Virus record (IMG/VR): IMGVR_UViG_2537562231_000019
Direction: 5' to 3' (one strand)
From: a virus
Lineage: Duplodnaviria > Heunggongvirae > Uroviricota > Caudoviricetes
Length of the DNA stretch: 5,384 nt
Below are positions 5,018 to 5,384 of the stretch, piece by piece. Made by a program: the position numbers and the translations under genes. The stretch's first letter is position 1; each line of letters begins with the position of its first letter. Below the pieces are notes generated by a model, which was given only the letters and a program-made list of their open reading frames with translations, had not been told where the DNA came from and searched no databases.

Positions 5018-5128
5018 ATGGACAATAACACCATTTCTCTACAGGAGTTGCTCGACAGCATTTCCAGGCTTCGGGAAGACGTGAATACCCTTACCGTCGC
5101 CGGTGATGCTGCCAACTTACTGATTTAG
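5018..5128 (+). pseudogene. ORF of unknown function truncated by IS1 insertion (28 native codons MDNNTISLQELLDSISRLREDVNTLTVA, then read-through into IS1 end to TAG at 5126-5128)
   Basis: ATG 5018 with SD GAGGA 7 nt upstream; reading frame is interrupted exactly at the IS1 left end (5102). Confidence 0.3.
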
Positions 5129-5384
5129 TGTATGATGGTGTTTTTGAGGTGCTCCAGTGGCTTCTGTTTCTATCAGCTGTCCCTCCTGTTCAGCTACTGA
5201 CGGGGTGGTGCGTAACGGCAAAAGCACCGCCGGACATCAGCGCTATCTCTGCTCTCACTGCCGTAAAACATGGCAACTGCAGTTCACTTACACCGCTTCT
5301 CAACCCGGTACGCACCAGAAAATCATTGATATGGCCATGAATGGCGTTGGATGCCGGGCAACCGCCCGCATTATGGGCGTTGGC
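5102..5384 (+). mobile_element. IS1 insertion sequence, left end and 5' portion (continues beyond window)
   Basis: Starts with the characteristic IS1 terminal inverted repeat GGTGATGCTGCCAACTTACTGAT (5102-5124), followed by sequence recognised as IS1 including the insA start. Confidence 0.95.
5157..5384 (+). CDS. insA: IS1 InsA (transposition regulator), N-terminal 76 codons; 3' end beyond window
   Basis: Translation from GTG 5157: [76 protein letters not shown], matching InsA as recalled. Track ORF 5128..5340 is a different frame and is rejected. Confidence 0.9.

Follow-up and report, generated by a model that had tools for sequence, protein, structure and literature searches.

IS1 is a classically polar insertion sequence and also promotes adjacent deletions. 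The closest described relative of the element reported here is IS1A of E. coli: the 283 bp at the end of the analysed stretch and the 357 bp that open the next contig of its assembly are identical to this 768-bp element, with which they share the 23-bp imperfect terminal repeats, the order of insA followed by the DDE_Tnp_IS1 frame, and the 9-bp target duplication. The element itself shows no difference from IS1A, and what is specific to this locus is the insertion site alone. The site lies in a prophage lysis cassette, for which the described counterpart is the phage 21-type cassette, composed of the S21 pinholin, the R21 SAR endolysin and Rz/Rz1. For insertion sequences located in lambdoid late operons, PMC12360218, citing Forbes & Herskowitz 1982, presents lambda Q as a proven polarity suppressor, acting through a Q-modified RNA polymerase.

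The window, that is, the whole stretch of 5,384 nucleotides analysed here, is identical to the entire contig ADUM01000106.1 of the E. coli draft assembly GCA_000184765.2, the host at which the initial annotation had hinted. Its features are collected in Table 1. Our reading is that one complete 768-bp IS1A would have entered an accessory gene of a lambdoid E. coli prophage by ordinary transposition, at codon 28/29 of a 90-aa gene, with duplication of the 9 bp ACCGTCGCC and nothing deleted, and that the insertion is now a rare inherited allele; we assign this reading a probability of about 0.92.

Table 1. Features of the 5,384-bp window, in order of position
Feature	Position	Strand	Basis
Large terminase subunit (terL), start of gene	runs off left end	-	
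Small terminase subunit (terS)	1011-1574	-	
HNH endonuclease	1865-2230	-	
YlcI/YnfO (DUF3950) gene, divergent	2272-2472	+	
TonB_C-domain lipoprotein	2604-2945	-	
Rz spanin gene	3269-3736	-	PF03245, E 1e-49 (match at 3269-3820); L001 annotation
Rz1, embedded in Rz, +1 frame	3331-3516	-	PF06085, E 2e-21
Small-ORF block	about 3836-4301	-	ORF reading, PHROGs
Phage lysozyme (R), 177 aa, first late gene downstream of IS1	4379-4912	-	PF00959, E 1e-23
Shine-Dalgarno GAGGA, 6-nt spacer before the ATG at 5018-5020	5007-5011	+	Sequence reading
First 28 codons of the 90-aa prophage gene, encoding MDNNTISLQELLDSISRLREDVNTLTVA	5018-5101	+	Uninterrupted relatives, phrog_2411
36-aa fusion ORF: 28 native codons plus IRL-encoded GDAANLLI	5018-5128	+	Read-through of the junction
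Left copy of the 9-bp target-site duplication ACCGTCGCC	5093-5101	.	Right copy after IRR
IS1 left inverted repeat (IRL), 23 bp	5102-5124	+	18/23 positions agree with IRR
IS1A positions 1-283, contig terminus inside the repeat	5102-5384	+	Identity to the 768-bp IS1 of L012
insA (IS1 Zn-ribbon/HTH protein), first 76 codons	5157-5384	+	Translation; Pfam PF03811/PF12759

The IS1A element and its two boundaries

The IRL (GGTGATGCTGCCAACTTACTGAT) begins directly after 28 complete codons of an open reading frame (ORF) on the plus strand, and the placement of this junction in the initial annotation, 28 codons into an ORF preceded by a Shine-Dalgarno sequence, proved exact to the base. From the junction to its right end the window matches IS1A with 283/283 identity, far above chance, and insA is still open at the terminus, its frame continuing past position 5384. 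The window ends inside IS1 because short-read assemblies break at multicopy repeats.

The far boundary was found on ADUM01000107.1 (L025), the next contig in numbering, which has a matching orientation and starts with IS1 positions 412-768. The right inverted repeat (IRR, GGTAATGACTCCAACTTATTGAT), an imperfect match to the IRL, was read on this contig as well as on L012, a 5.29-Mb contig from another assembly. Directly after the IRR of ADUM01000107.1 comes a perfect second copy of ACCGTCGCC, followed by TTCTCATATC..., which corresponds to the remaining 62 codons of the ORF. The right copy of the duplication occupies the same place in L012, L026, L028, L029 and L030, and excising IS1 together with one copy of ACCGTCGCC in silico regenerates the exact 90-aa protein of uninterrupted relatives. 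Further open frames on ADUM01000107.1, beyond the ORF, encode YdfR, a class II holin, a SASA esterase, IraM, a DNA methyltransferase, a Q antiterminator, RusA and a DUF968 protein.

In L012 the junction, the whole 768-bp IS1, ACCGTCGCC and TTCTCATATC... are all contiguous. This complete IS1 is 100% identical to annotated IS1A elements of many E. coli genomes and has a called 232-aa product of the InsAB type; PF03400, the DDE_Tnp_IS1 frame, was matched on L025. The window's own assembly recovers two parts of the element, positions 1-283 and 412-768, both identical to this copy. Since the central 128 bp are unassembled, the adjacency of contigs 106 and 107 rests on their numbering, their orientation, the duplication and the contiguous arrangement in L012.

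The 9-bp duplication and the intact far-side sequence argue for a simple insertion, and the check put forward in the initial annotation, for such a duplication at the other IS1 end, is positive. Taken alone, the window, which terminates inside IS1, leaves room for an element that marks the endpoint of an adjacent deletion or rearrangement having taken the holin, ydfR or the Q/late-promoter region, an outcome for which IS1 is well known and which the initial annotation had suggested for the holin or the Q/late-promoter region. However, the next contig of the same assembly carries the right end of IS1, the perfect duplication, the remainder of the ORF and the genes from the holin through Q, both holin and Q being open, and the same right junction occurs in five other assemblies, contiguously in L012. 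The IS1 sequence is not a solitary inverted repeat, the far-side sequence refutes a loss of holin or Q, and we find a deletion at this site scarcely credible. The unassembled centre of the element, together with the copy number of IS1 in E. coli genomes (median 11), would also accommodate two junctions that now lie on different IS1 copies, with IS1-IS1 recombination having inverted or translocated a segment and unlinked holin and Q from the lysozyme and terminase genes. This we regard as very improbable, given that the two contigs are numbered consecutively in matching orientation and that L012, with 4.3 kb of sequence identical to the window, carries the whole arrangement on one contig. A simple insertion is the preferred reading, and the prophage should not be scored as lacking a holin or a late regulator from ADUM01000106.1 alone.

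Distribution and descent of the insertion

Carriers of the junction were found through exact-protein look-ups with the 36-aa fusion product, the lysozyme (which led to L012), the 50-aa C-terminal remnant of the 90-aa protein and the terS allele. The junction was present in nine assemblies, contiguously in one, with both ends on separate contigs in three, and with one end in five; left and right junctions occur together in GCA_001284585.1 and GCA_001283565.1. The fusion product, which has been deposited three times in NCBI as 'ybl58 [Escherichia coli]', was called on six contigs, and all five of the contigs shown end inside IS1. Conversely, the C-terminal remnant (P0045) was called on five contigs, each of which begins inside IS1 and continues through the IRR and ACCGTCGCC into the rest of the ORF. 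A megablast search of 5,426 complete RefSeq E. coli genomes returned no match spanning the junction, and an exact-junction scan of GTDB species-representative genomes found none; the uninterrupted site is present in more than 1,000 genomes.

Comparison of the window with L012 revealed 62 differences, all of them within positions 1-1056 (~5.9% divergence), while positions 1057-5384 are 100% identical. The same 62 differences separate the window from L001 and L004, and the region concerned, a different terminase allele, comprises the 5' part of terL and the 3' end of terS. This pattern marks a sharp breakpoint of recombination close to the terS/terL junction. The contig's left terminus, within terL, may also stem from the presence in the genome of a second, similar prophage.

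L003 is the most diverged of the carriers, with identity to the window from position 4470 through the junction. Independent hits at an IS1 hot spot were considered and rejected, since all carriers share at least 0.6 kb of identical flank at the junction and their differences lie farther out. An identical junction flank with distant differences fits common descent, with recombination later affecting the flanking prophage. By this sequence evidence IS1 inserted here once and was passed down within a small group of E. coli assemblies as a rare allele, which could be used as a lineage marker for that group.

The interrupted 90-aa gene

In its uninterrupted form the gene is annotated as encoding a 90-aa hypothetical protein (e.g. 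WP_000369850.1 in NZ_CP009050). The reconstructed protein matches positions 1-90/90 of phrog_2411, a family of unknown function (PHROGs, E 1.1e-58), of which the window holds residues 1-28 only. We found 62 homologues, confined to Escherichia, Shigella and Citrobacter, so the ORF is not without relatives, a point that the initial annotation had left to be checked. The insertion cuts the protein to 28 native and 8 IS1-encoded residues, so that 14 of the 20 columns invariant in the family alignment are lost.

The interrupted ORF could be a chance open frame, in which case the part of the late operon that received IS1, between ydfR and lysozyme, would be a non-coding spacer. Several results agree with this: no family was matched by the protein in Pfam, NCBIfam or PADLOC; its AlphaFold2 model, built on a 19-sequence alignment, is a four-helix fold with a pLDDT of only 66, for which a Foldseek search against the PDB gave no match below E = 1; no promoter was found by a consensus sigma-70 scan upstream of the ORF; frameshifts occur in many deposited alleles; and one competing antisense frame also has a low pN/pS. 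Nevertheless, four diverged alleles (~82% protein identity) are each open for exactly 90 codons with start and stop unchanged, their changes fall mostly at third positions (dN/dS 0.2-0.4), and the antisense competitor is broken by stops in two of the same four alleles. The core motif is retained in a Citrobacter homologue of 59% identity, the Shine-Dalgarno sequence is ideally spaced, and the PHROG match is full-length. A chance frame therefore seems unlikely to us, and we read the ORF as a genuine gene that is moderately constrained, with a small reserve for its not being a gene.

The frameshifted alleles yield products of 94, 73 and 56 aa (proteins P0030, P0037, P0039, P0041, P0042, P0049, P0051 and P0061), and single-base deletions lie just upstream of the IS1 target site in L021 and L023 (near 9940). 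Such alleles could stem from homopolymer sequencing errors or from a gene that often decays. The 105-bp spacer between the start codons of the lysozyme gene and the 90-aa ORF contains a perfect 7-bp inverted repeat, CAGCCTG-N6-CAGGCTG (4966-4985), which could act as an operator or form an RNA hairpin. No papers were found in the literature for 'ybl58', or for ydfR together with holin.

Lysis cassette and expected effects of the insertion

The late genes lie on the minus strand, with annotation support from a 98.8%-identical relative. In uninterrupted relatives the 90-aa gene is antisense within the late operon, between the lysozyme gene and ydfR (YdfR/DUF1327). Past ydfR, both on L025 and in relatives, is a 71-aa class II holin (PF04971; RefSeq 'class II holin family protein'), beyond which the relatives encode a SASA-family esterase, iraM, tRNA genes, a DNA methyltransferase and the Q antiterminator. 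The order along the late transcript is accordingly Q ... SASA esterase, holin, ydfR, the 90-aa gene with IS1 on the opposite strand, lysozyme, small ORFs, Rz/Rz1, TonB-like lipoprotein, HNH endonuclease, terS and terL. Because holin and ydfR flank IS1 on one side and lysozyme on the other, the element is inside the lysis cassette and not upstream of all lysis genes; its placement immediately upstream of the lysis genes in the initial annotation holds for lysozyme and Rz/Rz1 but not for the holin, which is on the far side of IS1.

The lysozyme is related to the structures of P21 R (3HDE/3HDF) and RrrD (4ZPU), and its N-terminus (YGLSAAVLALIAAGA), a candidate signal-anchor-release domain, is hydrophobic and rich in Gly/Ala. 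The interval of ~0.5 kb between lysozyme and Rz contains hydrophobic ORFs of 43, 51, 28 and 70 aa, with matches to phrog_4906, phrog_3246 and phrog_6632, whose functions are unknown. Since the lysozyme gene directly abuts Rz in CFT073, this block is an accessory insertion in the lysis cassette. The TonB_C lipoprotein and YlcI/YnfO genes, between Rz and the HNH/terminase genes, resemble moron cargo and are absent from the junction contig L003. An Rfam search of the window found no RNA family.

The 90-aa gene and ydfR are convergent, with 3' ends that overlap by 35 nt (L001 11256-11290, past the right end of the window in the uninterrupted allele), and all relatives examined have this pair together with the class II holin. 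In phiSTEC1575-Stx2k (L020 665-2303) the holin/ydfR/90-aa module is followed not by lysozyme but by an unrelated second lysis module, made of two holin genes and an M15 peptidase, which places two holin systems in tandem. The three genes travel as a module, even beside an unrelated lysis module.

Before reaching the lysozyme, spanin and packaging genes, the late transcript would have to cross 777 extra bases, antisense to insAB. A consensus scan of IS1 in the direction of the late transcript found one weak terminator-like hairpin, no more than expected by chance. IS1, at 189 bp upstream of the lysozyme start codon, leaves the translation signals of that gene in place. Since Q antitermination suppresses polarity, expression of the downstream late genes on induction would probably be reduced little or not at all, polarity on lysozyme, Rz/Rz1 and the terminase genes probably being relieved; without Q, the lysozyme, spanin and packaging genes would be further insulated. 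The insertion alone is expected to cause little or no loss of lysis function, and the lysis or induction defect raised in the initial annotation remains conjectural.

Two other observations were made in L012: the 861-aa portal gene is split into ORFs of 454 and 407 aa (17773-20357), and a second insertion sequence with a 370-aa DDE_Tnp_1 transposase lies between the methyltransferase gene and iraM (4023-5135), as it does in GCA_001284585.1 (L028 4036-5148). These are signs of decay in the prophage, or of assembly error. With a split portal gene the lineage may already be defective for reasons that have nothing to do with IS1, and the effect of IS1 on lysis would then be moot.

The phrog_2411 gene might be expressed in lysogens and regulate the timing of lysis or read-through of the late operon, either via its protein or via transcription that converges on the late transcript. 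We consider this role improbable; were it true, carriers of the IS1 allele would form a natural knockout lineage in which induction or lysis is altered. In any case, the allele is a natural null of an uncharacterised gene embedded in a lysis cassette.

As an event, this is an ordinary textbook IS1 insertion with target duplication, of a kind already known. It resembles the insertion sequences in Q-antiterminated lambdoid late operons of Forbes & Herskowitz 1982, as cited in PMC12360218, in that an insertion sequence lies between promoter-proximal genes and downstream lysis or morphogenesis genes. It differs from them in that the Q antiterminator of this prophage is of the Pfam PF03589 type rather than lambda Q, and in that the element is antisense to the late transcript. 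Compared with the phage 21-type cassette, the locus shares the 71-aa PF04971 class II holin, a PF00959 lysozyme related to P21 R with a hydrophobic, Gly/Ala-rich N-terminus, and an Rz gene with Rz1 embedded. In contrast to that cassette, ydfR (DUF1327) and the antisense 90-aa gene are interposed here between holin and lysozyme, ~0.5 kb of small membrane-protein ORFs separate lysozyme from Rz, and the cassette is additionally split by IS1.
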